This document shows, piece by piece, positions 11,907-28,535 of a stretch of DNA of 64,000 nt. The notes beneath the pieces are model-generated. The model was not told the origin of the DNA. It did no database searches and was given only the letters and a program-made list of their open reading frames with translations. A program made the position numbers and the translations under genes. Numbering within the stretch: position 1 is the stretch's first letter; the number at the start of each line of letters is the position of its first letter. Source of the DNA: a virus. Location of the stretch: IMG/VR virus record IMGVR_UViG_3300036766_000876, positions 1 through 64,000 of that record; one strand, given 5' to 3'.

Positions 11907-12262
11907 TTCCGGGCCTCGTCCACCAGCACGTCCGCCATCTGGAGGGCCTGGCGCGCGTACCGCCGCATGGCCTCCGGCTCTGTTGGAATCGGTGAGTGGT
12001 TGGCGAGGAGCCCACTGGCGATGCCGATGCGGAAGCTGACCTTCCTGTCCGCCTCATGGCGGGCGATGTCCTCTGCCCGGTGCGCGTTGGACGTAGTGGC
12101 TACCTTCGCGAGGTCCTCGCGCAGCTCCGCCGCGTTCACAGCGAGGGCAGCCTTCAGCATCTCCGCCATGTTCGTGTCGAGGCGAAGCTGGAAGGCCGCC
12201 CGCTCCAACTCCCTCCGCTTCGCGTCGTACTCCAGTGCTTCCTTCAGCTCCGCTTCCGTCAT
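11903..12262 (-). CDS. Hypothetical protein
   Basis: GGAGGAG SD before MTEAELKE; C-terminus resembles the 11453 ORF. Confidence 0.6.
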   Translation of the reverse strand: MTEAELKEALEYDAKRRELERAAFQLRLDTNMAEMLKAALAVNAAELREDLAKVATTSNAHRAEDIARHEADRKVSFRIGIASGLLANHSPIPTEPEAMRRYARQALQMADVLVDEARK

Positions 12263-12654
12263 GGTGCTCCTCCGTGTGCTGCGTTTGACACAACGAGCCT
12301 GCGAACGGAATCCCGCGCTGCCTCGCGCTCCGCAATCCTGCGGTGAATCTCCGCCACAAATGGGATGGCCCGGGTGCTGGCGACCTGCTCGTCCCCACCA
12401 TCGAAGTTGCAACGGAAAAGAGCACCCTCGGAAGTGATGGTGACACGCCCGAAGTACTCCATGCCGCCGCCGTACCTCGTCTGGCCCTCAAGCGTGACTT
12501 GGTAGGTGACCCGAAAGTGGACGCTCACCCAGCGCTTGGTGCGAGCGATGTCCTCGTACCCGCCGTCGAACTCCCCGCCAATCTCGTAGGCGACGACGCC
12601 CGGCAGGAACGCCAGCACGCCATTGCAGGCCTCCGCGAACTCCGGGTACGTCAT
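12259..12654 (-). CDS. Small protein with C-terminal RL tag
   Basis: ...ARDSVRRLVV; ATGA coupling. Confidence 0.55.
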   Translation of the reverse strand: MTYPEFAEACNGVLAFLPGVVAYEIGGEFDGGYEDIARTKRWVSVHFRVTYQVTLEGQTRYGGGMEYFGRVTITSEGALFRCNFDGGDEQVASTRAIPFVAEIHRRIAEREAARDSVRRLVVSNAAHGGAP

Positions 12655-13046
12655 CCCGCTGCCCCGAGGCGCCAAGCCGCGGCCTCCTTCGGGAGAATCT
12701 CCTTGGCCCACCAGCAGGCGCTAGCGAAGGAGCTGCATGGGAGGAGCAGCTTCTCCGGCTGGCCCGGGACGTACAGGAGGAGCTCGTACCACTTGGTCGT
12801 CACCTTCTCCGAGTACCAGAGCGGTCGCCGCGCGTGCCCTGGTGGGTGGACAGAGCGCGCCATGAGGTGGACGCCTGTCCCCTGCGTGACGTGGGGCGAC
12901 CACTTCGTCGTCTCGATGAAGAGCGCCCAAGCGGAGCCGTGTTCCACGGCCACGCGAGGCTCGCAGTGGAGCCCGTGCTCCCTCGCAGTCCGCTTCCGCC
13001 TCCGGACGAGGTTGGCCCACTCCCGGTTCTCCCAATTCTTGTTCAA
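12651..13046 (-). CDS. Small protein with C-terminal RL-G tag
   Basis: ...KEAAAWRLGAAG*. Confidence 0.55.
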   Translation of the reverse strand: MNKNWENREWANLVRRRKRTAREHGLHCEPRVAVEHGSAWALFIETTKWSPHVTQGTGVHLMARSVHPPGHARRPLWYSEKVTTKWYELLLYVPGQPEKLLLPCSSFASACWWAKEILPKEAAAWRLGAAG

Positions 13047-13381
13047 CGCGCCTCCGCCATCTCTGTGAGGCGCCCAACAGCCGCCTTCGCCCTGGCAGCG
13101 CCCTCCGCCTCCACCAGCGCCTCCTTGAAGAGTCGGAAATGGAGCAGTGCTCCACCAGGGCCACGCCATGCCTTGAAGACACGCGAGCGCCCATTCCAAG
13201 GCCGGTCCGGCTCTACAAAGTCCAGCCTCTCGTAGAAGGCGCAATGGGCTCCATCAACCTCGACCTCCCAGAGGCCAAGGCCCTTGTGGGTCAGCCAGGC
13301 CCCGCTCTTGAGCAGCATCCGCTCGTTGACGAGCAGCCTGCTGGGGCTCTTCCCAGTGACGCCAGTGACGCCGCGCATCAT
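13043..13381 (-). CDS. Small protein with C-terminal RL tag
   Basis: ...AKAAVGRLTEMAEAR*. Confidence 0.55.
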   Translation of the reverse strand: MMRGVTGVTGKSPSRLLVNERMLLKSGAWLTHKGLGLWEVEVDGAHCAFYERLDFVEPDRPWNGRSRVFKAWRGPGGALLHFRLFKEALVEAEGAARAKAAVGRLTEMAEAR

Positions 13382-13722
13382 CCTTGGAGCCTCCACCGCG
13401 CGTCGAGCACTTCAAAGTCTCGCCGCACAGCGTCCATGGCGGCCTCTGGGGATGTGTACTTCCCGGCAGAAGCCGACGGGACCTTCAGCCCCGTCGCGGC
13501 AGCGAACCAGGAGACGCCCCAGCTCGGAAACAGAGCCGTCAGCTCGGCGGTGAGGACAACGGTTGGCCCACGCGCCCGGGCGTAGCTCATGGTGCCCCGC
13601 TCGTCGTCGAACGCGGCCAACAACCGGAACTGGAAGTCATCGACGGCGAGAGCAGTGAGCCCGCGGGCCTGCGCGAGGAGGACGACGCTCACCAAGGTCT
13701 GCTCCGCGGGTGTGATGCTCAC
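13378..13722 (-). CDS. Small protein with C-terminal RL-G tag
   Basis: ...VLDARWRLQG*; GGAGGAG SD. Confidence 0.6.
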   Translation of the reverse strand: MSITPAEQTLVSVVLLAQARGLTALAVDDFQFRLLAAFDDERGTMSYARARGPTVVLTAELTALFPSWGVSWFAAATGLKVPSASAGKYTSPEAAMDAVRRDFEVLDARWRLQG

Positions 13723-14420
13723 CGGCTCCTCCCTTGCCCCGGCCGGTCCCGTTTTCCCGGCACACTCGGGAGCGCCACAGGGGCAACGTACGGGCGGATG
13801 TCGGTGATGCCGTGGGACTCGAACGCCTCCCTGAGAGTCGGGAAGCGCCGGCCGGCCAAGGCAAACACAGGGGGCTTCCGCGTGCGGCCACCGAGGCGAT
13901 CCACGGACTCGTTCACCACCTCCAGCTCGCGCTCCATCTCCCAACGTGCGCCGTACAGCTTCCTGTTGAGCTCCGTCTCCATGAGGACTCCCTCCACGGC
14001 CAAGCGGAGCGCCGCTCGAAGGCTGGCGCTGGAGCCAAGCCAGACGTGCTCCTGGTGCCGGCGAGCACGGCTGAGCCGCCACCAGCGCTCCATCTGAACG
14101 CCCCAGCGCCTCCCATTGAAGAAGAGCCAGCAGGTGACGGAGGCGCGGCTCCAGAGGCCCCAGCGGAGGACCTTGGTGCGCTTCTTCAGGCGCTTCCCGA
14201 TACTGCTCGGCGCCATCTCATCCCGGGCCTCGCGCGCCTTGGGGCCGTAGCTCTCCCAGATGAACGCCTCGTGCAGTGCTGCGTAGTGCTGGGAGGTGAA
14301 GCCGTGCGCCTCCAGCTCCGCCCGGACAGCGAGCTCGTACACCAGGCGAGGGAGGCCTCCTGGGTGGTGGCCGGAGATGAACGTCTGCTCCCGCATGAGC
14401 CTCGTTCGGTACACGCTCAT
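13719..14420 (-). CDS. Hypothetical protein with sub-terminal RLGG tag
   Basis: ...NESVDRLGG... Confidence 0.55.
   Translation of the reverse strand: MSVYRTRLMREQTFISGHHPGGLPRLVYELAVRAELEAHGFTSQHYAALHEAFIWESYGPKAREARDEMAPSSIGKRLKKRTKVLRWGLWSRASVTCWLFFNGRRWGVQMERWWRLSRARRHQEHVWLGSSASLRAALRLAVEGVLMETELNRKLYGARWEMERELEVVNESVDRLGGRTRKPPVFALAGRRFPTLREAFESHGITDIRPYVAPVALPSVPGKRDRPGQGRSR
13733..13758 (-). promoter_or_regulatory. GGGAAAA-N12-GGGCAAG phage promoter motif
   Basis: 12-nt spacer variant, 10 nt upstream of GTG 13722. Confidence 0.6.
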
Positions 14421-14797
14421 CGCCCGCGGAGCCTCCGCACGGAGTCCGTCGTGACGACTTGCTCCTTGGCGTCCTGGATGGCGTCGTCGAGCTTGTCGAA
14501 CCAGCGCTCCCCGAGGGGGCCAGACGACAGGTACTCCTTGGACGCGGCGAGCTCCGGCCCGTACTGCGGCCAGCGGCGCACCCCTGCGACAGGGTCCCCG
14601 AAGATGATGCCCGTCTTCAGGCGAAGCGTGTTCCGCTTCTCCACCTCCTCGCCACCAAAGCGGATGTGCCACCGCCGCTGCTTCTGACGCTCGCAGACGA
14701 CGTGGTGCTCGTCGTCGATGATGACCCGCGCCCCAACGGGCATGGTGGCGATGTTCCAGCGATGGGGCCCTGGCGAGGGCTGGATGCCGGTCCTCAT
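14417..14797 (-). CDS. Small protein with C-terminal RL-G tag
   Basis: ...TDSVRRLRGR*. Confidence 0.6.
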   Translation of the reverse strand: MRTGIQPSPGPHRWNIATMPVGARVIIDDEHHVVCERQKQRRWHIRFGGEEVEKRNTLRLKTGIIFGDPVAGVRRWPQYGPELAASKEYLSSGPLGERWFDKLDDAIQDAKEQVVTTDSVRRLRGR

Positions 14798-15087
14798 CCT
14801 GCGAGCCTCCGCCTGGCATCCTCGCGGAGCCCCTCTCGGAGCGCCGCCCGAAATACGACGGGCCAGCGGCCTTCCGACACGAGCACGTCGTCAGCGGCTC
14901 TGGACTTGACGATGACGGCCCGCCACGTTCCGTTCGCGCGCCCGATGGCGACCATCGTGGCGATCCGCCAGTTTCTGTCGGGGCAGATTTGCAGCATGTA
15001 CATGTTGCGCGAGCGCCGGAACAACGCCGCAACTCGCTTCACTCGGCGGACGAAGCGGAGGAGGGATGACCGGGGCCCCATCACCAC
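14794..15087 (-). CDS. Small protein with C-terminal RL-G tag
   Basis: ...REDARRRLAG*. Confidence 0.55.
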   Translation of the reverse strand: MVMGPRSSLLRFVRRVKRVAALFRRSRNMYMLQICPDRNWRIATMVAIGRANGTWRAVIVKSRAADDVLVSEGRWPVVFRAALREGLREDARRRLAG

Positions 15088-15290
15088 TCCTGTGGAGGCG
15101 CAATCTCACCGATGGCGAGCTCGTTCTTCCCCTTGTACCGCGCGTGGAAGTACATCTTCTGTCGCCCGCCCATCAGCATCTTCACCTCCTCTGAGAGGGG
15201 AGCCTCGAACTGGACGGTGCGCTTCTCGTCGTGTGCGAGCATCCGCTGGAAGCCGTTGACGCCGATGGACACCTGAATCTTGAGAATCAT
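15081..15290 (-). CDS. Hypothetical protein
   Basis: MILKIQVSI... directly after a promoter motif. Confidence 0.6.
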   Translation of the reverse strand: MILKIQVSIGVNGFQRMLAHDEKRTVQFEAPLSEEVKMLMGGRQKMYFHARYKGKNELAIGEIAPPQEW

Positions 15291-15616
15291 GCTTCCCCCT
15301 CTTGCCCCGTGGACTCGGCTTTTTCCCAACGTGCGCCGGGCCGCCCCGTGAACGCTGGGTCCTGGAGCTCCCCCGTCAAGCGCCACACCGTGGCCGCGAG
15401 GGCGATGAGCCCCTTCGCCTCCGCCATGGCGTCGGTGAATGTCCCATGGCGAGTCCTGCCCTCCGCCCATTGCGTCTCCCATGGCATCGAGCTGACGAAG
15501 TACTTGCCCTCCGCGAGAAGGACGTACAGCGCGTTGCGCACAGCCTTGTTGTTCACCCGCCAGACGGGCTTCCGCTTCCACTGCTTGTAGTACGTCCCGT
15601 CCCTGTCAGCGCCCAC
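15287..15616 (-). CDS. Small protein with RL-G tag
   Basis: ...LAATVWRLTGE... Confidence 0.55.
   Translation of the reverse strand: MGADRDGTYYKQWKRKPVWRVNNKAVRNALYVLLAEGKYFVSSMPWETQWAEGRTRHGTFTDAMAEAKGLIALAATVWRLTGELQDPAFTGRPGARWEKAESTGQEGEA
15301..15327 (-). promoter_or_regulatory. GGGAAAA-N13-GGGCAAG phage promoter motif
   Basis: Exact match, 10 nt upstream of ATG 15290. Confidence 0.7.
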
Positions 15617-15887
15617 GGAGCCGCCCCTCCGCGTCCCTGGCGAGCCGGAGCTCGACGGCGGAGCGCAGCCCTTCGTGGAACGGGAGCGTCACCGGCTCGA
15701 AGCCCATCGTCTCAGCCACCTTGAGCAGCCAGGTGTGGTGCTTCTCGCAAAGTGAGAGGGGCAGGGTGGCCCCGGGCCATGTCCCGATCCACTTCGTTGG
15801 TTCTCCGCAAAGCTCGGTGTCGAGGCGCCGCTCCAGCTTCTGGTTGCAGCGCAGCTCCATGTGGTGCGTGAGGTCCGAGGTGTTCAT
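15606..15887 (-). CDS. Small Cys/His protein with C-terminal RL-G tag
   Basis: ...ARDAEGRLRGR*. Confidence 0.55.
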   Translation of the reverse strand: MNTSDLTHHMELRCNQKLERRLDTELCGEPTKWIGTWPGATLPLSLCEKHHTWLLKVAETMGFEPVTLPFHEGLRSAVELRLARDAEGRLRGR

Positions 15888-16423
15888 TCGAGTCCCTGCT
15901 CCTCCGCCTCTTCGGCCGCGCCCAGCTTGGCCCGGCGCCGCCTGTACGTCTCGCGGCACTCGGGGCAGGGCTTGAGCTGCGTGGCCAGGAAGTCCGGCAC
16001 GCGCCCGGACAAGGCCTCCTTGGCGAAGAGGGCCCTGAGCCGCTCCTCCGCCTGCTGCACGCAGTCGATGGGGACGTCCTGGGGCGACATCACGTTGCTC
16101 GTTGGCTTGCGCGCCCCGCGCGCCCGAGGCCACGCGCCCTTCCAGACGTCGGGCCTCAGGGCCGGGTTGGAGAGGCGCATCGACAGGAGGCCGGACTTCC
16201 AGCGCCGGAGGTACACCACCAGGACGGAGATGGAGGAGGCCCCACAGTACGAGGTGCCGTCCTCCCGGGTGCGCATCATCCGGAGCTGGGCCACGCCCTG
16301 CTCCCCAGCGCCAACGTCCTTCCCGATGCGATGGACGTGCTCGTGGACGGAGCAGCCCGGCGGGCAGAGGCCACCGAAGAGGGGGCTCCAGGCAGCGCGC
16401 GAGGTGGGGCGGTAGGGACTCAC
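15884..16423 (-). CDS. Hypothetical Cys-containing protein
   Basis: Coupled ORF; CPPGC, CPEC. Confidence 0.5.
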   Translation of the reverse strand: MSPYRPTSRAAWSPLFGGLCPPGCSVHEHVHRIGKDVGAGEQGVAQLRMMRTREDGTSYCGASSISVLVVYLRRWKSGLLSMRLSNPALRPDVWKGAWPRARGARKPTSNVMSPQDVPIDCVQQAEERLRALFAKEALSGRVPDFLATQLKPCPECRETYRRRRAKLGAAEEAEEQGLE

Positions 16424-16890
16424 CCGTGCCTCACCCTGCGGGGTAGCTTCCCCTGGAGCCGCCGCGTGGCCTCCTCCGCGAGGAGCTGGTCCTCGAAGGC
16501 CCGGGCCGCCAGCCGGATGTTGCGGAGGCGGTACGGGTCCTCCACGAGGTACTTCCCATCCACGCCCTGCTTCAGCCGCCAGACCTCCGCGTAGTGAGCA
16601 ACGTGGCCGGAGCTGATGTGGACGTCCTCCCGCTCAAAGAGGCCCGTGTTGAAGAGGAGCTCGCGAACGTCGCATGGCTCGTGCTCCCTGACGTGAATCT
16701 CGTCGTCTCCCAGGAGCTCGTCCGGGAGGTTGGTGGAGAGCGTGTCCCAGGGCACCTGCTGCGGCCCGAGCACCTGGAAGGCCGGGCGCCTGTTGCCGTA
16801 CCGGCCGACCTTGAGCGTGTAGACGCCGCGATGGGGGCCGGTCGCCAAGACGAGCGGTAGGTCCTGGAGCGCCTCGAACGGGGATGCCAT
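16420..16890 (-). CDS. Protein with C-terminal RL-G tag
   Basis: MASPFEAL...; ...AEEATRRLQGK. Confidence 0.6.
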   Translation of the reverse strand: MASPFEALQDLPLVLATGPHRGVYTLKVGRYGNRRPAFQVLGPQQVPWDTLSTNLPDELLGDDEIHVREHEPCDVRELLFNTGLFEREDVHISSGHVAHYAEVWRLKQGVDGKYLVEDPYRLRNIRLAARAFEDQLLAEEATRRLQGKLPRRVRHG

Positions 16891-16899
16891 GCCCTCTCC

Positions 16900-16926
16900 C
16901 TTGCCCCGGTGGGGCCAGTTTTTCCC
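16900..16926 (-). promoter_or_regulatory. GGGAAAA-N13-GGGCAAG phage promoter motif
   Basis: Exact match, 9 nt upstream of ATG 16890. Confidence 0.7.
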
Positions 16927-17279
16927 TACAGGCTCCGGTCCGGATCCGGCGCCTGGCCGAGCAACCTCTCCAGGGCCTCCCTCTGAGACTCCGACATCGA
17001 GTAGAGCGCCACCGCCCGCGCGTGGCCGGCCAGCGCCTCCGCCTCCGTGCAGTACCGCTCCTGGTAGGGCCACTTCCCAGAGCCCATGTGCTGGACCATC
17101 GTCTCGAAGATGACCGGCTCCGCGTCCGTGCTGAAGCTGTGATCGCTCCCGAGCCAGACGGTGGACACCCAGTAGGCCCCGCACGTCGTCTCCGCCACCC
17201 GCTTGTACTTCGAGTCCGTGAGGAGGGCGCCGTACTCCTCGTACGTGAGCGGCTGCCCCTGCTTGTCGAAGTGCCTCAC
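16926..17279 (-). CDS. Small phage protein with RL-G tag
   Basis: VSTVWLGSDH...FETMV...RYCTEAEALAGH; ...REALERLLG. Confidence 0.65.
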   Translation of the reverse strand: MRHFDKQGQPLTYEEYGALLTDSKYKRVAETTCGAYWVSTVWLGSDHSFSTDAEPVIFETMVQHMGSGKWPYQERYCTEAEALAGHARAVALYSMSESQREALERLLGQAPDPDRSL

Positions 17280-17587
17280 AGCGGAGCCCCCAAGCGCACG
17301 AGGGAGTCCTTCTCGATGGCCCAAGCCAGGAGGCTCTGAGCCACCTCCCCGGCCTTGAGCCCGAGCTCGCGGTACTCGGCGTTGCCGAGAAACCTGTTGG
17401 ACTCACCCGTCCAGTTGATGCCCCAATGGATGAAGAGCCGGAAGGTGAGGATGACGTCTGGCCCCGTCGTGACCTGGACCGCCACACGGCCCTTGAAGAC
17501 TTCCGCCTTGACGCTCTTCGCGCCGAAGCGTTCCTCCAGGGCGCGGAAGACGGCCCGCTTGACGGTGTGCGTCGTGTCCGGGCTCAC
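17276..17587 (-). CDS. Small protein with C-terminal RL-G tag
   Basis: ...EKDSLVRLGAPL*. Confidence 0.55.
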   Translation of the reverse strand: MSPDTTHTVKRAVFRALEERFGAKSVKAEVFKGRVAVQVTTGPDVILTFRLFIHWGINWTGESNRFLGNAEYRELGLKAGEVAQSLLAWAIEKDSLVRLGAPL

Positions 17588-17913
17588 GTTGCCGGCCCAA
17601 TCCAGTCGAGGTGATGCGGAACGTGGGAGCCGTCCAGGCGACGAGCTGCTTGCTCCGCCTTGCGCTTCTCCTGTTGGAGCCGGCGCTTCTCGTCCCACTT
17701 CCGGAGCTCGTGGTCCATGTACGGGCGGAGGTCTGTCGGGTCCACGCCCTCCTTCCACGAGGTGCGCACCCACGCCGGGTATGGGTGGGACGAGTACCGC
17801 CCCGGGTTGGTCCACGGGAGCACCACCCGGTCGCCCCACTTGGTAAGCGCACCAGCCGCGCCCACCCACTCCTCGAAGGTGAGGCCCTCCGGGTTGGTGG
17901 AGTAGCGAGCCAT
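17584..17913 (-). CDS. Small protein with RL-G tag
   Basis: ...AEQAARRLDGS... Confidence 0.55.
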   Translation of the reverse strand: MARYSTNPEGLTFEEWVGAAGALTKWGDRVVLPWTNPGRYSSHPYPAWVRTSWKEGVDPTDLRPYMDHELRKWDEKRRLQQEKRKAEQAARRLDGSHVPHHLDWIGPAT

Positions 17914-18293
17914 CACCAAACCCCGGGTCTGTCTGAACGCCACTCAGGGAGCACAACCCCAAGGCGCACCTTCGCGGCGGCCACGTTGTACAGGCGCAGC
18001 GCCTCGACCTTGGCCTCCTTGAGAGAGCAGCGGAGCTTCGTGAGGCCCCCGTGGAGGTCCCTGCGCGGGCGCACAGAGAGGTCCCAGGCATCCCACCTCT
18101 TGGAGAAGATCCGCCTGGAGAGACGCGCGCAGACGAAGCGCCCGTCACCGGGCCCCTCGAACGAGCCGGCCCGTGGGAGGAGCCACAGAAGGTGGTCGCC
18201 AAAGGTGTCCCGCCTCCACCAGAACGTGAGCGGCTCCGGGAGCTTGGTGCGCCTGGCGAGCTCCTCAAGCTCGGCGTACGTGTAGGTCTTCAC
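17913..18293 (-). CDS. Small protein with RL-G tag
   Basis: ...VAAAKVRLGV... Confidence 0.55.
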   Translation of the reverse strand: MKTYTYAELEELARRTKLPEPLTFWWRRDTFGDHLLWLLPRAGSFEGPGDGRFVCARLSRRIFSKRWDAWDLSVRPRRDLHGGLTKLRCSLKEAKVEALRLYNVAAAKVRLGVVLPEWRSDRPGVW

Positions 18294-18589
18294 CAGTGCT
18301 CCCTCTGCTCCTGGAGGGCCACCTTCAGCTCATCCCGCTCCGCTTCGAGCCGGGCGACGTACGTCTTGGCGAGGTCGAGCCCCTTCGCCATCGCCTGCCC
18401 CTGCGTCTGGTAACCGGCCTTCGCTGCGGAGGCGGCAGCCCGCATGATGAGCGAGCAGGCCCGGGCCCAATCGAGAGCAGGCATACGCTGGAGGGCTGCA
18501 AGCCGGGCCTTCAGCTCGGCAATCTCCTCTAGGGCAGCTTCGTAGGTGGCGGGAGGGGGTGGCGCTGGACGGCGGGAAGGGACCTTCAT
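18290..18589 (-). CDS. Hypothetical coiled-coil protein
   Basis: MKVPSRR..., ATGA coupling. Confidence 0.5.
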   Translation of the reverse strand: MKVPSRRPAPPPPATYEAALEEIAELKARLAALQRMPALDWARACSLIMRAAASAAKAGYQTQGQAMAKGLDLAKTYVARLEAERDELKVALQEQREHW

Positions 18590-18858
18590 CGCTTCCTCCG
18601 CTTCAGTGTCAGGGCCTCGCACGCGCGGAAGGCCGCGCGCTGGGCCGCCTGCCAGGTGCGGGCGCGGCCAACGGACATCCCCTCGTTGGCATCCATGGCG
18701 GACTGGGCCTTCACCCACTCGGTAGGATTCTCCACGCGCCAGCTCCACTCCTCCTTGTGGAACTTCCCATGGACGAGGACGCTGAAGTGCTTGTGCCCGA
18801 CCGTCACCGCGAGGTTGGAGACGCCGAACTGCACCTTGAGGCCGCTGCTCTTGCGCAT
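18586..18858 (-). CDS. Hypothetical protein
   Basis: MRKSSGLK... directly after a promoter motif. Confidence 0.55.
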   Translation of the reverse strand: MRKSSGLKVQFGVSNLAVTVGHKHFSVLVHGKFHKEEWSWRVENPTEWVKAQSAMDANEGMSVGRARTWQAAQRAAFRACEALTLKRRKR

Positions 18859-18867
18859 GCCCTCTCC

Positions 18868-18894
18868 CTTGCCCGGGCCCGCCCGCTTTTTCCC
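18868..18894 (-). promoter_or_regulatory. GGGAAAA-N13-GGGCAAG phage promoter motif
   Basis: Exact match, 9 nt upstream of ATG 18858. Confidence 0.7.
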
Positions 18895-21602
18895 TACCGG
18901 CTGAGGACGTCCATCCGGCCAGCCTCGACGCGCATGGAGCCGAGGCGGTGCCCCTCGCGGGCGAACCAGCTCGCCATGAGGGAGTCCCCGGTATGCGCTG
19001 CGGGCGCGTAGTAGAGCATCTCCTGGATCCACGTCGCGATTTCTGGATGGGCCGGCATCCCGCCTCGGGAGGGGATGATCCACTTCCGGCCGGCGAGCTC
19101 CGTCGCCATCGACTCGATGCCGAACTCCGGGTGCGCCTTGTTCCGCCCCGTGGTGAACGGCCTGATGGGGACGGCGAAAGCGCCCCTGGCGAACTGGACG
19201 ATGAAGTCCTGAGCGTTGTGAACGACGAAGTCCTCCACCGTGTAGCTCTCGTCCTCCTCGACGGTGAGGTTGAAGACGGCCCCTCCCTTGTTGTCGAGGA
19301 ACGGCGCCTCCTCCATGTCTGGCACCTTGCTCCAACCGTGGAGCCTCTCCAGTACGATGGTGCCGTTTGACTTGCGCCTCGTCTTGGCGGCATCGCTCTC
19401 GAACCAGCGCTTCCAACGTTCCGCCTCCGTCGGCGTTGTCATCCTCTTCCGCAAAGCGCTTGAGCCCTCGTGCGTGAGGGTGAGCAGGTTGAGCGGGCGC
19501 CGCGTCACGACTCGCCCCTCGATGCTGTCTGTCTTCCGGTCGCTGGCGCTGAGCGCCATCGGGATGCCGGCCTGCCCCAGCGTGCTCCGGACGAACATCA
19601 TCCAGTCCCTGGAGATGCTGCACCCAGACAGGAACCACTGCGGCCACTTCGTCGAGGCGTTGTTGGGGCGCGCGCAACCGTCCCCCATCAGCCAGCCGCG
19701 CACCAGCGCGAGGCGGAGCCTCAGTGGCCAGCCCATCCACTTGAGGGGCAGGCACTTCTTGGCGCCCGTCCCGATCCGGAGCGCGTTCGCGAGCTGCGTC
19801 GAGGAGACGACGACGCGCAGCGTGCCCCTGTCCGTTGGGCGCAGCGTCACCTTCCCCCTCACGAGCTTCCACACCTCTCGCTCCACGAGGGCCGCGAGGT
19901 ACGTCTCCTTCTTGCCGAACGTCCAGTACACCTGGCCGCGCGTGGCGTGCCCCTCCGCCATGAAGAGCCCCAGCACGAGGGCGAGGTCCTCCGTGACGGG
20001 CACCGTCTTCGCGGCGTCCCTGAGCGTCTCCGGCAGGTGGAACTGTGCCTTCAGGGCAGGCCAGCGGGGCAGCGCCACCGCCGCGTACGCCGGCTCATCG
20101 CGCACCCCGTAGGACACCCACTGCGCCGCCCCGACTGGCCGGTGGTGGCCCGTCGAGGAGCGCCCGGCCTTGCGGAGCCAGAACCAATGGTTGGGCGTCG
20201 TGACGACTGGCAAGCAACCCTTCGCCTGCGCCCTCACCGTCGTCTGGGCGGTGCCCTCATGCGTCCCGGTGACGGGGCGCCAGCGCCCCTTGTGCGTCCA
20301 GACGAGGTCCCCGAGCTGGACCTGCTCGATGGGCTTGTAGCCCTCGCTGGTGAGCACGCGAGTCCCTGGGGCGAAGCAGGCGTTGTTCTCCACCACGACG
20401 ATGGAGAGGAACCGGCGGTGGTGGTCGATGATGCGGGAGACAATCTCCGGCCCGCTCCACTTCCCCCGCTCGATGTTCAGCACCTCCCTGTCGTTGGTGT
20501 TGGGATGGACGGCGATGGTGAAGAGCACCGTCGAGTCGGAGCCATCCTTCTGCTGCACGGCGAGGTCCACTCCCGTGTACGTCTTGAAGCCCGGGGGGAG
20601 CTTGTCCATCCCGTAGCAGAGCTGCTTGCCCTCGCCACGCGCCAGGCAGACGTCGATCCACTCCTTCTTGAAGCGGGCCTCGTCGTCGGAGCGCGCCACG
20701 CAGAGGAGCTGTCGGGCGAACTCCAGTGGCCCCAGCGTCTCCCGGACGCGGGCGATGCGCTCTGGGGGCCAGCGCTCCGCCCACCTCGGAGTGCCGTCCT
20801 CCAGGAGCACCGGGTAGCGCATCGCCTTGAAGCCCGGCATGCGAGCCAGCCGGTGGAGGGCGTCGTCGGGGTGGAAGGCCGTGCCCACGACGAGGACGCG
20901 CCCCTTTGACGTGAGGCGGGAGAGGCAAGCCGCCTGGAGCCACGCGAAGCAGTCCTCCCTCCCCTGCGCGCTGCGGGTGTTCTCCACGTCGAGGAGGTCA
21001 TCCACGATGAGGAGGTCGAGCCGGGAGCCGAGGATGTTTCCGTGGACGCCGATGCCCTGGATGGAAGGGTCCTTCGAGATGCTCTGACGCTTCACCGTGA
21101 TGGCGCTCGTCGTCCACTGGTCCGAGCTGGGGCGGAGGTCCGGGAACACCGCGTGGAGCTCCGGGCTCGACTCGATGTACCGCTTGATGGAGCGGAGCAC
21201 CTTCTGGCTCTGCCCCGCCGTGTTGGAGACGATGCCGATGCGCAGACCCTTGTCCCGCCCGAGCTCGAAGAGCGTGCGGGCGATGCTGAGCTGGCTCGTC
21301 TTCCCGGACTCGATGGAGCTCCAGAGCATCAGCCTGTCGTTCTCGCTCGCCAGCTTGTGCCAGGCCCGGTGGACCTCCGCCTGCTCCAAGGGAAGGCCAG
21401 TCCGCTCGTCTCGCATGACGGTAGTGACGAAGCAGTTGATGTCCTCACGGGCGGCCTCCAGGAGGTTCTGCGTCAGGTAGGCGTCGGACTCGGCATCGAG
21501 CGGCACCTCCACGGCCAAGTCCAGGGCAGCAGGCTGCCCCGCCGGCCAAGCACTGAGGGTGGGGCCGCCGAAGAGGCTGGTTGGCGTTGGGGCGTTTGCC
21601 AT
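18894..21602 (-). CDS. terL: Terminase large subunit containing an intein
   Basis: Walker A SIESGKTS, Walker B LLIVDD, VGT coupling motif, nuclease GVDLA and HTGDSLMA. Confidence 0.9.
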   Translation of the reverse strand: MANAPTPTSLFGGPTLSAWPAGQPAALDLAVEVPLDAESDAYLTQNLLEAAREDINCFVTTVMRDERTGLPLEQAEVHRAWHKLASENDRLMLWSSIESGKTSQLSIARTLFELGRDKGLRIGIVSNTAGQSQKVLRSIKRYIESSPELHAVFPDLRPSSDQWTTSAITVKRQSISKDPSIQGIGVHGNILGSRLDLLIVDDLLDVENTRSAQGREDCFAWLQAACLSRLTSKGRVLVVGTAFHPDDALHRLARMPGFKAMRYPVLLEDGTPRWAERWPPERIARVRETLGPLEFARQLLCVARSDDEARFKKEWIDVCLARGEGKQLCYGMDKLPPGFKTYTGVDLAVQQKDGSDSTVLFTIAVHPNTNDREVLNIERGKWSGPEIVSRIIDHHRRFLSIVVVENNACFAPGTRVLTSEGYKPIEQVQLGDLVWTHKGRWRPVTGTHEGTAQTTVRAQAKGCLPVVTTPNHWFWLRKAGRSSTGHHRPVGAAQWVSYGVRDEPAYAAVALPRWPALKAQFHLPETLRDAAKTVPVTEDLALVLGLFMAEGHATRGQVYWTFGKKETYLAALVEREVWKLVRGKVTLRPTDRGTLRVVVSSTQLANALRIGTGAKKCLPLKWMGWPLRLRLALVRGWLMGDGCARPNNASTKWPQWFLSGCSISRDWMMFVRSTLGQAGIPMALSASDRKTDSIEGRVVTRRPLNLLTLTHEGSSALRKRMTTPTEAERWKRWFESDAAKTRRKSNGTIVLERLHGWSKVPDMEEAPFLDNKGGAVFNLTVEEDESYTVEDFVVHNAQDFIVQFARGAFAVPIRPFTTGRNKAHPEFGIESMATELAGRKWIIPSRGGMPAHPEIATWIQEMLYYAPAAHTGDSLMASWFAREGHRLGSMRVEAGRMDVLSR
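19215..20378 (-). mobile_element. 388-aa intein with LAGLIDADG homing endonuclease
   Basis: Starts CFAPGTRVLT; block B TTPNH; LGLFMAEG and RGWLMGDG; ends VFNLTVEEDESY...VVHN; +1 residue is Ala. Confidence 0.92.
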
Positions 21603-21605
21603 GGC

Positions 21606-22601
21606 CTACTTGCTTTCTGTTGGTGAGAGGGCTATCGCGGGCGAGCCCGCGACGCTGCTGGAGCCGCCGGCCCCTCCCGCCACCATGCGCATCCCCTGGG
21701 CAGCCGCCCGGGCAGTGGCCTCCGCCCGCTTGTCCTCCAGATGGCGCTGGATGGCCCTGAGCTTGATTTCCTTCTCCTCCAGGCCTCCATCCACGGTGGT
21801 GATGCCCAGCACCTCTGTCGGCTGGCCCATGCGCAGGCGCTCTCCCTGGAGCGCGAGGATGAGGCTCTTCTCCGCGGCCTCCACCAGGCGAATCATCTCC
21901 CGGGCCATCCGCAGCGCCTGTTGTGGGCTCAGCTTGGAGAGGTCCCCCATGGCCGTGCGGAGCTGACTGGCGATGAGCTGGGCATCCTTCAGGATGAGCG
22001 CAGCGATGGCGGTGGCGCCCAGGGCCGCCTTCCGGCCGAACTTCGCAGCCTGGGCCTCGTCCGCCATCGTCTCCGCGGCGTCCACCTTGGCCCGCCGGAG
22101 GAGGTCCGCCAGGCGCATCTTGGCCTGCGTCTCAGCGTTGCCCATGGTGGCCATGGCCACGGCTTCCGCGTCGGCAAGCTTCTTCAGGCTCAGGGCCTCC
22201 ACCTCCGCCAGGCGCTTCTCCGCCTCCGCCATGAGGCTGATGGCGCGCTTCTCCGCCGCCTCAGCCTTCTCCGCGGCGTTGACGAGCATCAGCTCGGCGG
22301 TGGCCGTCCCTACGGAGGCCTCCGTCATGGAGTCCTTGATGATGTCCGCGGCCGCGATCGCACTCAGCCCCTCGGAGCCGAAGCCCTCCCGGGCCGCCCT
22401 GGCGAAGAGCTGCTCCTTGTGGATGAGCTCCTTGATGGCGATGCACCCGTCGATGCTCTTCCAGCCCGTGTGCCAGAGGCCGGACACCGTCTCCCGGTTG
22501 AGGCCCGTCACCTTGGCCACCTTGGAGAACTTCGGCCCGTATTGCCGCAGGTAGTGGACAGCCGAGTCGTACAGCGCCTTTGTCCGTTTGATTCCGGCCA
22601 C
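21606..22601 (-). CDS. Putative terminase small subunit
   Basis: Immediately upstream of TerL; N-terminal HTH (FSKVAKVTGLNRETVSGLW) and long helical region. Confidence 0.55.
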   Translation of the reverse strand: MAGIKRTKALYDSAVHYLRQYGPKFSKVAKVTGLNRETVSGLWHTGWKSIDGCIAIKELIHKEQLFARAAREGFGSEGLSAIAAADIIKDSMTEASVGTATAELMLVNAAEKAEAAEKRAISLMAEAEKRLAEVEALSLKKLADAEAVAMATMGNAETQAKMRLADLLRRAKVDAAETMADEAQAAKFGRKAALGATAIAALILKDAQLIASQLRTAMGDLSKLSPQQALRMAREMIRLVEAAEKSLILALQGERLRMGQPTEVLGITTVDGGLEEKEIKLRAIQRHLEDKRAEATARAAAQGMRMVAGGAGGSSSVAGSPAIALSPTESK

Positions 22602-22828
22602 TTGCGTCCCTTCCCTAATGCCGCAGGCCTGGTTGGCCTACCCGAGTGAAGCCCCGTGGAGGGTCCCCAAATGCCGCAGGGCACCTCGCCTGCGGCATTC
22701 CTTAACACGGTCCAGCCCCGAGTCGAGAGCCCCCGGAGGCACCTGCGGCATTAGGAGCGGCATTCGGATGCCCAAGCGCGGCCGGCCAGACACGGCTGGA
22801 TGGCTAATGCCGCAGGTGATGCCGCAGC
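22541..22828. repeat. Cluster of direct and inverted AATGCCGCAGG repeats (candidate pac/TerS-binding region)
   Basis: Perfect copies at 22617, 22670, 22806 (+) and 22689, 22742 (inverted); partial copies at 22541, 22757, 22818. Confidence 0.75.
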
Positions 22829-22871
22829 CGGCCCAGGGGGCCTAGAAGGCCCCGAGACGGGCGCAGAGGCT

Positions 22872-23210
22872 TCAGGGTGGGGAAGGGCTGGGTTGCCCCG
22901 CGCTCAGCCTGTAGGCGGCATCCCTGGCAGCGAGGAGGGCATCGGCTGCGTTCAGCGCCTCCTCCAAAGTCGGGAACTGCTCGTCAGCGACATTCATGAC
23001 GCCGGGCTTGCCGCTCCGCATCACGGAAGCCCCGTGGCCCGGGCTGCCTTCATGGACGTAGGCGCAGAGCTTGGTGTGGGTACCCCCAAAGGGTGTGCGC
23101 TCCAACCAGATGAAGCCCTCCCAGAGCCGGGTGCCTTGAGCCGCCTTCACGCACAGCCACCTTGCGCCGGAGGGACCGACCCAGCCGTCGTCAGGGCCAG
23201 TCCGCCTCAT
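22872..23210 (-). CDS. Small protein with C-terminal RL tag
   Basis: ...AARDAAYRLSAG. Confidence 0.55.
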   Translation of the reverse strand: MRRTGPDDGWVGPSGARWLCVKAAQGTRLWEGFIWLERTPFGGTHTKLCAYVHEGSPGHGASVMRSGKPGVMNVADEQFPTLEEALNAADALLAARDAAYRLSAGQPSPSPP

Positions 23211-23557
23211 CGCTGGTCCCGGCTCCCTGTCAGACGCCTGGCTGCCTCACCGGCCCGGAGCTCTGCCTCAGCAGCGTCCAGGGCCTCCCCGCGACTCTTG
23301 TACCTCCGGCGCAGGTAGTCAGAGGCGGAAGCCATCCTGTAGCGCGCCCGCCGGAGGGGTAGGTTGGCGGCCTGCCCTACGGTGAGGACGCACCACTTGC
23401 CCCGGGGGAGCAGGACAACGTACCGGCGCCAGTTGATGAGGCCGCTGATGAGCTCCACCATCCAGACCTCATCTGAGTCGATGTCGTTGTCCTCCAGGCG
23501 TCGCCGGGTCGGCTCCCGGCTCGTCTCGTAGACGGGGTGAATCACCCGAGCCTCCAT
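23207..23557 (-). CDS. Small protein with C-terminal RL-G tag
   Basis: ...AGEAARRLTGS. Confidence 0.55.
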   Translation of the reverse strand: MEARVIHPVYETSREPTRRRLEDNDIDSDEVWMVELISGLINWRRYVVLLPRGKWCVLTVGQAANLPLRRARYRMASASDYLRRRYKSRGEALDAAEAELRAGEAARRLTGSRDQR

Positions 23558-23829
23558 GCCGCGGCCATGGCACGGAGCCAGACCTCAGCAGCCTGGAAGG
23601 CCTCCTCCTTGGTGGAGAACAGAGGGAGCCCCGCCACCCTGTTGGCCCTCACGCGCTTCTTGTCCGCCAGCACGGCCCAACTGGGCGCTGGAGCGCTTGG
23701 AGGGCCAAGCCTGCTGCGGACCCACGCCAGGTAGATGTTGGTCCCATGAGCGCCGCGAGGCTCCCTCAGCTCCACCACCCACGTCTCGGGCTGGTACCCG
23801 TCCAGGAGTGCGTAGTGGACGGCGCTCAC
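23542..23829 (-). CDS. Small protein with C-terminal RL-G tag
   Basis: ...AMAAAWRLG*. Confidence 0.55.
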   Translation of the reverse strand: MSAVHYALLDGYQPETWVVELREPRGAHGTNIYLAWVRSRLGPPSAPAPSWAVLADKKRVRANRVAGLPLFSTKEEAFQAAEVWLRAMAAAWRLG

Positions 23830-24122
23830 GGCCAGCGAGCCCCGAGGCGCAGGCTGGCATCGCAGACGACGAGGAGGTCCTTGGCGGCCTCGACGGCCTC
23901 CGCCTCGGTCGCCAGCGCCGTGTAGGAGAGGCGCACCCAGCGGCCGTCCCCGAGGTCCACGTCGTGCGGAGCGCAGTCCACCAGCCACCGGCCATCGTAC
24001 ATCTGGAGGACGCTGCGGTGGAGGTTGCCAAGGCTCAGCAGGACCATCCTCCGCTTGGAGCCCGGCGAGTCCCCCGCCAAAGGCTTCCCCTCCGACACGA
24101 CGACGCTCCGCTGGCCGCTCAC
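23826..24122 (-). CDS. Small protein with C-terminal RL-G tag
   Basis: ...VCDASLRLGARWP*. Confidence 0.55.
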   Translation of the reverse strand: MSGQRSVVVSEGKPLAGDSPGSKRRMVLLSLGNLHRSVLQMYDGRWLVDCAPHDVDLGDGRWVRLSYTALATEAEAVEAAKDLLVVCDASLRLGARWP

Positions 24123-24454
24123 AGGATGCCCAACAGCCGGCGCGATGCGTCCTGCTTCACCCACTCGGACAAGGCGCGGAGGGCTGCCTTGCTGAAGCCG
24201 TCGTACGCGCCCAAGTGCCGGCCGCCGCCCCACTGGTCGTGGTCGAACACGGTCAGCTCCCAGTGCATGCCAACCTTCTGCATGGCGACGTAGTGCTTGG
24301 CCCTCCCGTGGCGAACCCCGTCGTCGAGCTGGACGAGCTCCCACTGCCCGATGCGCTGGCAGACGAGGTCCGCCCCAGAGGCCTTGAGCGCCTCGATGAG
24401 GGCCCCTGCGCCCGGGGAGAGCATATCCGCTGGTACGTCGAAGATGGATGTCAC
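24119..24454 (-). CDS. Small protein with C-terminal RL-G tag
   Basis: ...KQDASRRLLGIL*. Confidence 0.6.
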   Translation of the reverse strand: MTSIFDVPADMLSPGAGALIEALKASGADLVCQRIGQWELVQLDDGVRHGRAKHYVAMQKVGMHWELTVFDHDQWGGGRHLGAYDGFSKAALRALSEWVKQDASRRLLGIL

Positions 24455-24849
24455 GTCCCGGCCCCAAGCCGGAGCCCGGCCTCAGCGATGAGGAACTCCC
24501 TGGAGAGCTCCCGGAGGACGTCCGCCGCGAAGGAACAGGGGATGCCGCTGACGGTCATGTGGGTGGCGCCGAAGCTGCTGGGCTCCGCGAAGGCCTCCAT
24601 CATGACGTGGACGCGCGCAGACGGGAGGGCCGACAAGGGGAGCGGCTTGTCCGAATCCACCATCAGGAGGAGCGTCACCGTTGCCTGGACGCCGAACCGG
24701 GGCCCCGGGCGGACCTCCAGCGTGACATGGAGCCTCCCGTGGTAGGGCGCCGCCGCGTCGTTGACGAGAGGGAGCAGCCAGTCGTTGAAGGCGCCTGCAT
24801 GGCGCTCCTCCAGGCTCTCCGCCAGAGAGCGGTTTCGCGTGGCGGTCAT
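24451..24849 (-). CDS. Small protein with C-terminal RL-G tag
   Basis: ...IAEAGLRLGAGT*. Confidence 0.55.
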   Translation of the reverse strand: MTATRNRSLAESLEERHAGAFNDWLLPLVNDAAAPYHGRLHVTLEVRPGPRFGVQATVTLLLMVDSDKPLPLSALPSARVHVMMEAFAEPSSFGATHMTVSGIPCSFAADVLRELSREFLIAEAGLRLGAGT

Positions 24850-25208
24850 GCTCCACCCCCGAGTCGAAGCTCCGCCTCGATGGCGCTGAGCTGCTGGCGG
24901 ACGAAGACGTCGAGCCCCTCCGGGCTGGTGGCCTTCCAAATCTGGGCACCCCTGGCGACGAAGCCATCCCCGGACTGCAAGGAGCCAACGAGGAGCGTTC
25001 GCTGGCCCATGTTGGGAAGGCTCACCGACTGCCCTGGGAAGTGCGTCGGCTTCAAGCCCACCACGAGCTGGTGGCAAGTCCCAAACAGCTTCGCGTCCAC
25101 GATGAGCGCAATGTCCGTGTCAGGACCAGGGCCCGTCCTGGCGAGGGCGGTCGTAATTGAGAGGGCCGGGTGAAGCTCCCGGAGGTGGTCCCAGCGCCAG
25201 GTCCACAT
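24846..25208 (-). CDS. Small protein with C-terminal RL-G tag
   Basis: ...AIEAELRLGGGA*. Confidence 0.55.
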   Translation of the reverse strand: MWTWRWDHLRELHPALSITTALARTGPGPDTDIALIVDAKLFGTCHQLVVGLKPTHFPGQSVSLPNMGQRTLLVGSLQSGDGFVARGAQIWKATSPEGLDVFVRQQLSAIEAELRLGGGA

Positions 25209-25942
25209 CAGAAGGCCCCCTGGTTGGCCGCATGGGAGAAGTGCCGAGGCCTGTCGCGGAACTCTCGCCAGGAGTGCTCCCCAAGGAGCCTGTTGGCCGC
25301 GTCCTGGGCGAGCACCTCCCTGGCGAGCGCCAACACCACCGGGCAGAAGCGGTACGGGGTGCGCTCCGCCCCCTCGCAGACGGGGATGTGAGGCCACCCC
25401 ACCATCGCCTTCCAGAGCCCGTCGTGGTCGAGCCCGAGGAGGTCCTGCGCCTGCCCCTGGCTGAGCGTCTCTCCCTTGGGCTCCGCCCGCATCTGGAAGC
25501 GGATGCTCTCGAAGCCTGTTGTGTAATTCCTGGACCGCATGTGAAGGAGCTCGGAGCCTTCCCACAGCGGGAGCGGTGCCTCCTTCGAGCAGCGGGCGCA
25601 GAGCCACTTCCCACCGAGCTTGATGGTCGGCTTCCCACGGCAGCGCCGGTAGTCCCGCGGGCGGGCCTTGAGGAAGGCGAGCAGCGGGCCGGTACCCCGA
25701 GCCCTCGGCTTGACGGGGTAGAGCTGCCGGTTGGCGCACTTGGGGAACGGCTCAAAGGCGAGCTCGAAGCGTTCGTCGGTGGCCGGCCAGCCGTTGTAGA
25801 CGCTGTACGCCGGGAAGAGCCGCTCACCCTTGAACTCGCGCGCCTTCGACTCCTCGGGCAGGGCCGCCTGGATGGCGGTGGCAAGCCCGTCACGCCAGGC
25901 CTTCACCATCGCACGCTTGCGGTACCCGCGGAGCCACGTCAT
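25208..25942 (-). CDS. Hypothetical protein with RL-G tag
   Basis: ...AQDAANRLLGE... Confidence 0.55.
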   Translation of the reverse strand: MTWLRGYRKRAMVKAWRDGLATAIQAALPEESKAREFKGERLFPAYSVYNGWPATDERFELAFEPFPKCANRQLYPVKPRARGTGPLLAFLKARPRDYRRCRGKPTIKLGGKWLCARCSKEAPLPLWEGSELLHMRSRNYTTGFESIRFQMRAEPKGETLSQGQAQDLLGLDHDGLWKAMVGWPHIPVCEGAERTPYRFCPVVLALAREVLAQDAANRLLGEHSWREFRDRPRHFSHAANQGAF

Positions 25943-26415
25943 CGCTTCCACCAGAGGAAGACGGAGCCGAACTCGGGCTGGCCCTGCTTCTTCGCCAGGA
26001 GGTCCCCGGGCTTCCCGTACTGGAGGCGTGCCGGGAGGAAGCGAACATGCAGTGGGGAGCCAGGCCTGTCGCGGAACGGCTCGACGTGCTCGTGCCACCA
26101 GGCGAGGTCCGTCCGCGTCGCGGGGAGGAGCATCCCGATGACCTTCACCACGCGGCGCCTGCGCCTCCACTCACTCCAGGCCTTCTTCACCCAGGGGCCC
26201 ACGTTGCTCCAGGGAGGGTTGCACCAGACGCGCCCCCACCAGGAATGGAGGAGCCCGTTGTCGGCCTTGGTGAGGTACTTCGGGGCGAGGTGCGCCTCCA
26301 GGCAGGCCGCCACGTCGAGGTCCCACGCCTTCACGCCGGCAGCGGCGTTGCAGAGCAGCTTGACGTGCTCCAGCGTGTAGCGCTCGTCGGTGTCGAGGTC
26401 CGCGATGCCCACCAC
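25939..26415 (-). CDS. DNA N6-adenine methyltransferase (phage Dam-like family); start uncertain
   Basis: DLDVAA, DNGLLHSW, VWCNPPWS, MLLPATRTDLAWWH. Confidence 0.85.
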   Translation of the reverse strand: MVGIADLDTDERYTLEHVKLLCNAAAGVKAWDLDVAACLEAHLAPKYLTKADNGLLHSWWGRVWCNPPWSNVGPWVKKAWSEWRRRRRVVKVIGMLLPATRTDLAWWHEHVEPFRDRPGSPLHVRFLPARLQYGKPGDLLAKKQGQPEFGSVFLWWKR

Positions 26416-26464
26416 CTCCGGGAAGGCTTCGAGCTGACCCGTCAGGGCCCACCGGAGACTCCGC

Positions 26465-26701
26465 TCAGCCGCCGATGAGGCGGGTGACGGCCTCTTGGGC
26501 GAGGGCCGCCTCGACGTCTGAGCGGCGGTAGTAGATGGCGACGTGCGAGCCATCCCTCACCAACCTCCGTTCGAGGCCAATCTGGAGGTAGTCGCTGGCG
26601 TGGCGCCTGTCGGCCAGGGAGTTGAGCGACATAGCGAGCTCGTCCGGATCGACGGAGTGCTCCATCGCTGCCTGCTCCACGCTGACCCAGGAGTCGTCCA
26701 C
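26465..26701 (-). CDS. Small HTH-like protein with C-terminal RL-GG tag
   Basis: ...AQEAVTRLIGG*. Confidence 0.55.
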   Translation of the reverse strand: MDDSWVSVEQAAMEHSVDPDELAMSLNSLADRRHASDYLQIGLERRLVRDGSHVAIYYRRSDVEAALAQEAVTRLIGG

Positions 26702-26712
26702 ACGCCCTCCCC

Positions 26713-26739
26713 CTTGCCCCGGCCGGCCTACTTTTTCCC
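26713..26739 (-). promoter_or_regulatory. GGGAAAA-N13-GGGCAAG phage promoter motif
   Basis: Exact match upstream of GTG 26701. Confidence 0.7.
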
Positions 26740-28124: not shown

Positions 28125-28535
28125 TCACAGCCTCCGGTAGATGTTGAAGAGCCGAGTCCCATCAGTACTCGTCTTCTGCCCGGCGAGCGAGAAGCCAAGG
28201 CGCTGGTAGAAGCTGTTGGACTCGGCGCTGTCGGCGTTCGTCTTCAGCTCCATTGGGTAGCCGATGGCTGCGAGCAGCTCCTTGCCGAGGCCCTGTCGCT
28301 TGGCTGCCGGGTCCACCGCCACCTCGTAGAGGACCTTCACGCCGTCGCGCTGCCTGGTGAGGTAGTGGGCGAAGGCGAGCTCGGGGATGCCGATCCACCG
28401 CGCGTTCTTCGGGAGCGGGTTCCATGCACGCCACCAGATGACGCCCGGGTCCGTCCCCAGGATGTGCTCGTAGTGCTTCCAGATGCGAATCACCCATGGC
28501 TTGTCGGCCAGGGTGAGGCCCACGACGCGGCTCAC
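28125..28535 (-). CDS. GNAT acetyltransferase
   Basis: VAVDPAAKRQGLGKEL and SNSFYQRLGF. Confidence 0.85.
   Translation of the reverse strand: MSRVVGLTLADKPWVIRIWKHYEHILGTDPGVIWWRAWNPLPKNARWIGIPELAFAHYLTRQRDGVKVLYEVAVDPAAKRQGLGKELLAAIGYPMELKTNADSAESNSFYQRLGFSLAGQKTSTDGTRLFNIYRRL

Follow-up and report, generated by a model that had tools for sequence, protein, structure and literature searches.

Two arrays of small minus-strand genes in an uncultured sediment phage encode proteins that share a short motif at or near their C-termini, with the core consensus [D/E]-A-x-x-R-L-x(0,1)-G (the RL-G tag). The phage is represented by IMG/VR virus record IMGVR_UViG_3300036766_000876 (94,299 bp), and the window analyzed here is its first 64 kb (positions 1 to 64,000; G+C 68%). 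The tag, in the form [DEAQ][AST]xxRL and mostly followed by x(0,1)G, is carried by 23 of the 26 minus-strand genes of 12259-18293 and 22872-26701. Sequence comparisons indicate that the motif is maintained by purifying selection on the protein and that it is modular, occurring on at least three to four unrelated protein bodies: a DUF4313-like family, a family referred to here by its FETMVF motif, the family of 25208-25951, and a helix-turn-helix (HTH)-like protein (26465-26701). In predicted structures it forms the final two turns of an amphipathic α helix together with the C-cap. We tentatively propose, from sequence and predicted structure, that the tag is a portable interaction helix, a common docking or assembly helix of the array proteins, whose exposed face would let otherwise different array proteins bind one common partner or each other.

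The arrays are composed as follows.

12259-18293, minus strand: array 1, with fourteen tagged genes, the untagged gene 15081-15290, and 15884-16423, in which the motif is degenerate (AEERLRA / AKLG only)
17913-18293, 17584-17916, 17276-17587, 16926-17279, 16420-16890, 15606-15887, and 15287-15616, minus strand: tagged genes of array 1
14794-15087, 14417-14797, 13719-14420, 13378-13722, 13043-13381, 12651-13046, and 12259-12654, minus strand: tagged genes of array 1, continued
22872-26701, minus strand: array 2, with nine tagged genes and the untagged Dam gene 25939-26415
26465-26701, 25208-25951, 24846-25208, 24451-24849, 24119-24454, 23826-24122, 23542-23829, 23207-23557, and 22872-23150, minus strand: tagged genes of array 2
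14794-15087, minus strand: 97-aa open reading frame (ORF) ending in DARRRLAG then stop, the 23rd tagged gene

Genes were called with a self-trained codon model, and C-termini were read from those calls. The ORF 14794-15087, which this codon-based caller skipped and which has a low codon-usage score, was added from its translation; it is the top match to a hidden Markov model (HMM) of the tag outside the training set, albeit a weak one (6.6 bits). All 23 motifs listed in the original prediction are present in the sequence, every one on the minus strand, and the translational coupling it described is borne out by 4-nucleotide (nt) overlaps with the next start (ATGA/GTGA) in 16 of the 22 called tagged genes. 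Its C-terminal placement of the tag requires refinement: the motif lies near the end but is not strictly terminal, with 1-57 residues following RL and no more than five in 13 of the 23 proteins. This last count also disfavors a helix-turn-helix, in which the A-x-x-x-L-G turn would be followed by a recognition helix of ~10 residues.

The strict pattern [DEA][AS]xxRLx(0,1)G is strongly enriched in the arrays. It occurs within the last 30 residues of 15 of the 29 proteins called across 12259-26701, compared with 1 of 109 proteins from other parts of the 94-kb genome and 0 of 206 from terminase-relative phage loci (Fisher p = 2e-17), and shuffled array proteins yield a mean of 0.045 matches with a maximum of 2. 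A six-frame search of the whole genome with the tag HMM at E<=1 returned no copies beyond the 22 training ones, and five other phage records (53-69% GC, 308 kb total) gave no match. Outside the arrays, the strict motif is found at five sites, the RecA C-terminus (EAAERLGG) and four N-terminal positions, one of them in an HTH protein; as this number is close to the ~2-3 chance matches estimated from composition, these sites are not counted as tags. The loose form RLx(0,1)G lies in the last 30 residues of 8 of the 109 other proteins of this phage versus 2 of 206 control-phage proteins. Such looser endings include RecA (35024-36004, EAAERLGG followed by a Lys/Ala tail), a P-loop kinase (26728-27276, VRLLGKK), and three small proteins (30955-31209, AARMLGARSKRG; 54414-54644, LRLVGRRP; 58035-58316, RRLLGGPTVP), which may be tags or chance matches.

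Codon usage places this conservation at the protein level. Where two aligned members agree in residue, their codons coincide in 604 cases. Genome codon usage predicts 604.7 such cases, so the count equals chance and shows no DNA-level conservation, gene conversion, or mobile cassette. Leu codons of the motif likewise match genome usage. Superimposed on this is an excess of G-rich codons: AGG at 7 of 22 motif Arg positions (13% genome-wide, p = 0.02), GGG at 13 of 19 motif Gly positions (33%, p = 0.002), and an NGG codon before the Arg in 9 of 22 cases (7.8%, p = 2e-5), mostly as Trp, Arg, or Gly. Where the tail is short, they precede the overlapping start of the next gene by 5-11 nt; the synonymous and near-neutral codon choices flanking the motif thus carry a Shine-Dalgarno (SD) signal. 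The earlier statement that the motif is conserved in protein and is not an SD artifact therefore stands in its main part, with an SD overlay added to it. The AGG, GGG, and NGG excess and its position before the next start would also fit a motif that is nothing but a by-product of the downstream SD or gene junction, or of a repeated DNA cassette. However, the Arg lies 7-176 nt ahead of the next start, no alternative start follows the motif, an SD explains neither the D/E-A nor the Leu positions, and outside homologues with long tails keep the motif including its Gly. As a sole cause, the nucleotide-level explanation is thus largely refuted, and we give it next to no credence; the overlay in codon choice remains.

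The following tagged proteins represent the different bodies.

23542-23829, minus strand: 95-aa core representative, whose helix ends in AAAWRLG followed by stop; AlphaFold2 (AF2) predicts four strands and a helix at residues 74-94
16420-16890, minus strand: 156-aa protein with a DUF4313-like body (~1-107), a strand, a long helix ending in EATRRLQG, and a basic tail
16926-17279, minus strand: 117-aa member of a phage family of wide distribution (WVSTVWLG...FETMVF...RYCTEAEALAGH); an additional helix at its C-terminus bears EALERLLG
25208-25951, minus strand: 247-aa tagged protein whose DAANRLLG lies 23 residues from the C-terminus; it also contains a CxxC motif and an HTH-like stretch
26465-26701, minus strand: HTH-like 78-aa tagged protein ending in ...IGG

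About 15 members carry the motif at the end of a longer, ungapped module of ~30 residues with constant spacing. Anchored on RL, with the Arg at position 0, the module comprises an aromatic strand residue, [ST]xxE-A, Ala at -16 and -12, hydrophobic residues at -8 and -7, Ala at -6, D/E at -4, Ala at -3, and R-L-(x)-G. Leave-one-out HMM searches rank 15 of 22 members at the top of the non-training proteins (E 4e-5 to 0.07); the other seven match only over the last ~8 residues, and six of these still have the strict pattern. Two genes, 57561-57806 (plus strand, ...AAEAAFRFSG...) and 18586-18858 (minus strand, ...AAFRACEALTLKRRKR), encode a module-like C-terminal helix without RL-G and score weakly with the tag HMM; both are possible degenerate members. 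The near-invariant Trp that appears in MAFFT alignments of the members sits 33-116 residues from the motif and is an alignment artifact.

The motif ends an α helix in both proteins modeled with AF2, spanning residues 74-94 in 23542-23829 and 97-106 in 16926-17279. Projected on an ideal helix, the hydrophobic moment points to 250° for positions -20 to -8 and to 120° for positions -7 to +1, a rotation of ~130°. D/E(-4) and R(0), spaced i/i+4, adjoin A(-3), L(+1), and A(-6) on one helical face. The surface of the last two turns would accordingly differ from the face that packs on the protein's own core, and because the conserved face is rotated away from the preceding apolar one, we read it as an exposed interaction surface.

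Models of two core members from AF2 and ESM Atlas (pLDDT, the predicted local distance difference test score, 62 and 0.46) consist of a sheet followed by one helix; the AF2 model of 23542-23829, built with the paralogue alignment, has a pLDDT of 62 overall and 84-86 in the helix. ESM Atlas neighbors of these low-confidence models include integrase arm-binding and WGR domains (TM 0.53-0.59), together with Tudor/SH3-like and DUF4314 folds, all at TM<0.6 and thus leads. The module may also resemble the strand-helix unit of AP2/integrase-N domains. A fold search with 23542-23829 against the PDB gave no match at Z>=5 (best Z 4.8), and no homologue was found outside its own cluster among 5.8e9 clusters. 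Since the ~30-residue module includes the preceding strand and the helix N-cap, tandem duplication is likely for the ~15-member subset, and these core members may be tandem paralogues of one small sheet-plus-helix domain. The earlier claim that the tagged proteins lack N-terminal similarity consequently holds in part: BLAST finds no similarity between bodies, but the ~15 members have this module in common.

The DUF4313-like protein 16420-16890 provides a view of the tag beyond this genome. A phmmer search recovered 26 homologues (~30-45% identity, E down to 3e-13), and 14 of 24 aligned family members match PF14190 (best E = 1.8e-5), the window protein itself giving no match at E<=1. Long forms (~13) add an extension of ~45 aa that ends in ...lA.dA.rRL.G in at least eight distinct metagenomic clusters with ~30% identity to the window protein, whereas short forms have neither extension nor motif and stop after YAEVWRL. 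A tag profile built from 19 other proteins of the phage singles out the C-termini of the outside DUF4313-like homologues, and hhalign aligns the family with the phage tags over 27 columns (E = 1e-5; slightly circular, with one row common to both). Around half of the long forms (P0059, P0069, P0073, P0075, P0076, and P0082; alignment A6) carry a single CxxC right before the tag helix at fixed spacing, possibly an inter-chain zinc site.

The 52 homologues of 16926-17279 belong to a second family, which ends soon after an AGHxxxV helix, as seen in a 21-sequence alignment. This alignment, together with a strict-motif scan of every fetched homologue, finds the motif in 16926-17279 and in just one homologue, the closest (P0003, 56% identical, DATDRLRG), the residues after the Gly being unrelated between the two. 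In the AF2 model of 16926-17279 (pLDDT 93), the core helix (79-93) is followed by a distinct helix (97-106) that holds the tag. Its fold matches in BFVD are uncharacterized phage proteins (E = 2e-8), and Foldseek against the PDB gave no match at E<=0.001. For the third body, 25208-25951, a 70%-identical orthologue on a Logan contig (P0055) keeps the motif as DASKRLLG; its tail is conserved as much as the motif, and the pair is therefore uninformative. Profile comparison by hhalign indicates no relation between the DUF4313-like and FETMVF families (E = 0.17) or between the FETMVF family and core members (E = 0.12). The presence or absence of the motif as a unit within families, and its occurrence outside this genome, make it modular. 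The original prediction's description of the tagged proteins as dissimilar is upheld, in that the tag sits on demonstrably different bodies; the motif is also kept in relatives from other metagenomes, where the post-Gly tail varies.

Residues following the Gly are Pro/Gly-rich and diverge between homologues that keep the motif, both in 16926-17279 and in the DUF4313-like family. The long tails of 13719-14420 and 15287-15616 read through the promoter-like box of the next gene:

13733-13758, minus strand: promoter-like box GGGAAAA-N13-GGGCAAG in the 57-residue post-motif tail of 13719-14420
15301-15326, minus strand: promoter-like box GGGAAAA-N13-GGGCAAG in the 29-residue post-motif tail of 15287-15616

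The functional protein thus seems to end at the motif Gly, and the residues beyond it would be dispensable read-through into the ribosome-binding site (RBS) or promoter of the next gene. Further GGAAAA-N13-GGGCAAG boxes lie at 16900-16925, 18868-18893, and 26713-26738, and the minus strand holds 12-17 copies against 3.2 expected. Within tagged-gene tails the boxes stand a few bases ahead of the next start, and the same box precedes replication genes.

Enrichment, protein-level conservation, leave-one-out recognition, modularity in two families, divergent tails, and a distinct helix face support a docking helix. Weighing against it, the E...R pair at i/i+4, the Ala/Leu stripe, and the Gly C-cap are equally expected of a purely structural helix end; the tail of 25208-25951 is as conserved as its motif in the 70% orthologue; and the ~15 core members, whose bodies are modeled with the low confidence given above, may be paralogues of one fold. 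In an alternative that we hold to be possible but doubtful, the array proteins are diverged paralogues produced by tandem duplication of one sheet plus C-terminal-helix domain, the motif is a structurally required helix end with no common partner, and the outliers have recombined with resident 3' ends. The arrays are indeed tandem, co-oriented, and coupled; the ungapped module, with its aromatic strand and [ST]xxE N-cap, keeps constant spacing in ~15 members; two member models are a sheet with one helix, as are their structural neighbors; and the salt bridge, packing Ala/Leu, and Gly C-cap are generic helix-stabilizing features. Paralogy does not account for the absence of BLAST similarity between bodies (the MAFFT Trp being an artifact), for at least three members whose bodies belong to independent families in which the motif comes and goes as a module, or for the six of seven weak leave-one-out members that keep the strict pattern without the longer module. 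The original image of a portable peptide on interchangeable cargo covers the several unrelated bodies but is only partly apt, since tandem duplication is likely for the ~15 members that have the ~30-residue module in common.

We rank the readings in the order docking to a common partner, structural helix end of paralogues, tag-tag association, handling by a MoxR/VWA system or as a degron, and capsid loading. Association of tags with one another, for example as antiparallel helices with D/E(-4) facing R(0) and small residues permitting close approach, would give homo- or mixed oligomers; the charges and residue sizes of the motif are self-complementary about position -2, and the lone CxxC carried by roughly half of the long DUF4313-like forms could make a zinc site only if a second chain took part, but this CxxC is absent from most members in this phage, and we consider self-association quite unlikely. 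A substrate handle would be captured by the DUF2201/VWA-like protein and MoxR-like AAA+ that the phage encodes, or would act as a degron or processing site at which tails are trimmed, for timed remodeling or turnover. vWA domains have been proposed to capture a substrate peptide that MoxR then releases (PMC7159879), a principle that would suit such a handle, and the post-Gly tails look dispensable. Several members, however, have no tail to trim; the motif is helical and partly apolar, whereas metal ion-dependent adhesion sites (MIDAS) typically engage an exposed acidic residue; and its distance of 1-57 residues from the C-terminus is unlike that of end-recognized degrons, making this role improbable. 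A signal for capsid loading and injection, in which small effectors would attach through the tag to a component of the head and be packaged and injected along with the DNA, appears more improbable still: the arrays flank a gene read as a terminase, but they share their promoter-like box with the replication genes, and the tag continues a folded helix in place of being a linker-borne peptide. No hub, degron, capsid-loading, or protease role, all raised in the original prediction, emerged for the tag. Returning to the docking helix, its most far-reaching form, which we regard as unlikely, is an address label: one reader, the MoxR-like AAA+/VWA pair or a host hub, would grip about two dozen unrelated small effectors by the helix and handle them as a group (recruitment, remodeling, timed removal, or delivery), the label having spread between families in a lineage of uncultured phages.

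Among known systems, the tag would work most like shared docking tails or constant C-terminal adaptors, by analogy, and it is a member of no tested family. The acidic C-terminal tails of T7 gp2.5 and gp4 dock on the polymerase, and clamp-binding peptides are likewise shared docking tails. These resemble the tag in placing one short, protein-level-conserved C-terminal element on unrelated proteins of one phage; they differ in being terminal, acidic or extended, and in having a known reader, whereas the tag, [D/E]AxxRLxG, is helical and can stand as far as 57 residues before the C-terminus in the ~23 small proteins that carry it. Poxvirus ankyrin proteins end in PRANC, an F-box-like domain of ~40 residues whose partner is Skp1. 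The likeness is that a viral genome has many genes in which different bodies are joined to the same short helical module at the C-terminus; PRANC differs in being an F-box-like domain of that length with a known partner, and we see no sequence relation to the tag. Cargo-loading peptides of encapsulins are extended and follow a flexible linker, and the T4 capsid-targeting signal is N-terminal and cleaved. Both are short address labels on diverse cargo, as the tag may be, but the tag is a helix continuous with the fold; an encapsulin-type peptide is rejected because the motif is joined without a linker to the 20-residue helix that it continues. The suggested kinship with ubiquitin or a ligase substrate is not supported. 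The superficial R-L-x-G and the removable-looking tails of some members recall LRLRGG of ubiquitin and ISG15, but AF2 places the motif in an α helix in two proteins, unlike a flexible β-grasp tail or the disordered Pup. A GG end is rare (only 26465-26701 has one; in most members 0-55 residues follow a lone Gly), and Pfam scans of 50 other phage proteins (49-902 aa, mostly the larger ones, many without any Pfam match) contain no E1, E2, ligase, or JAB-type domain. DUF4313 (PF14190) covers only the body of the 16420-16890 family, and the C-terminal motif helix matches no Pfam model.

If one partner reads the helix, a single short motif would organize about a sixth of the phage's genes, offering a handle with which to fish for that partner and assign a role to two dozen proteins without known relatives or function, as well as a small portable tag for engineering. 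More modestly, the motif has stayed fixed in protein while all synonymous sites drifted, the codons surrounding it also encode RBS and promoter signals for downstream genes, and a recurrent C-terminal module goes undetected by Pfam models such as DUF4313.

Searches of Pfam, PHROGs, and NCBIfam with all 22 called members returned nothing significant, in agreement with the earlier statement that no named family matches. PDB sequence searches with the tag profile and the DUF4313-long profile were negative, as were viral-contig scans with 21606-22601, 27273-28124, P0003, P0058, and P0065 and metagenome-contig scans with A4 and P0058. Across 50,697 phage records, tblastn gave one weak match for 16926-17279 and nothing for four members and two outside homologues. 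The literature held nothing relevant on a shared phage C-terminal tag like the RL-G motif or on DUF4313; an occurrence of DUF4313/4314 in polyvalent proteins is not borne out in PMC5512222.

Nearly all transcription in the window is on the minus strand. The lone public DNA run with the window sequence is a sediment metagenome, probably its source, and no RNA run is listed for it. Pfam and the gene order around the arrays define the following context.

18894-21602, minus strand: 902-aa gene between the arrays, named large terminase in the original prediction; Pfam Hint_2, a Hint/intein domain; untagged
21606-22601: 331-aa gene preceding the terminase-like gene
25939-26415, minus strand: Dam methylase (PF05869), untagged, inside array 2
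26728-30249: thymidine-hypermodification-type operon (Pfam) with P-loop kinase 3, FAD oxidoreductase, amino-acid:DNA transferase, and TET/JBP
50820-52196, minus strand: DUF2201 putative metallopeptidase with VWA-like domain (Pfam DUF2201_N + VWA-like), candidate tag reader
52229-53383, minus strand: MoxR-like AAA+ (Pfam), candidate tag reader

Further Pfam assignments include SbcC-like and SbcD-like proteins, RecA, a gp32-like single-stranded DNA-binding protein, a family A polymerase, a DnaB-like helicase, an ECF (extracytoplasmic function)-type sigma factor, and a peptide deformylase. The location of the arrays between the DNA-hypermodification operon with Dam and the terminase suggests a role in host takeover or counter-defense. 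The Hint domain is inserted at approximately residues 409-469 of the terminase-like protein. Homologues of this gene in other phage records (L003-L013) are distant and are followed by large genes, with no tagged arrays and no tag, whereas the gene in this phage is followed by 18 kb of small genes.

The window has eight exact copies of TGCGGCAT against 2.5 expected, and six of them, in both orientations, cluster in the 209 bp of the intergenic region 22618-22826, between 22872-23150 and 21606-22601. This cluster, which precedes a possible small-/large-terminase pair, could represent an operator or a pac-like repeat array. Beyond the window, at genome coordinates 90103-91124, four small proteins whose genes lie upstream of the head genes end in a P-F-[TK]-[LV]-like motif, which the endings ...KRPFRFTR and ...RKPFKGF in the relatives L003 and L004 resemble. 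This second C-terminal motif, unlike the RL-G tag, is present in other phage records too.

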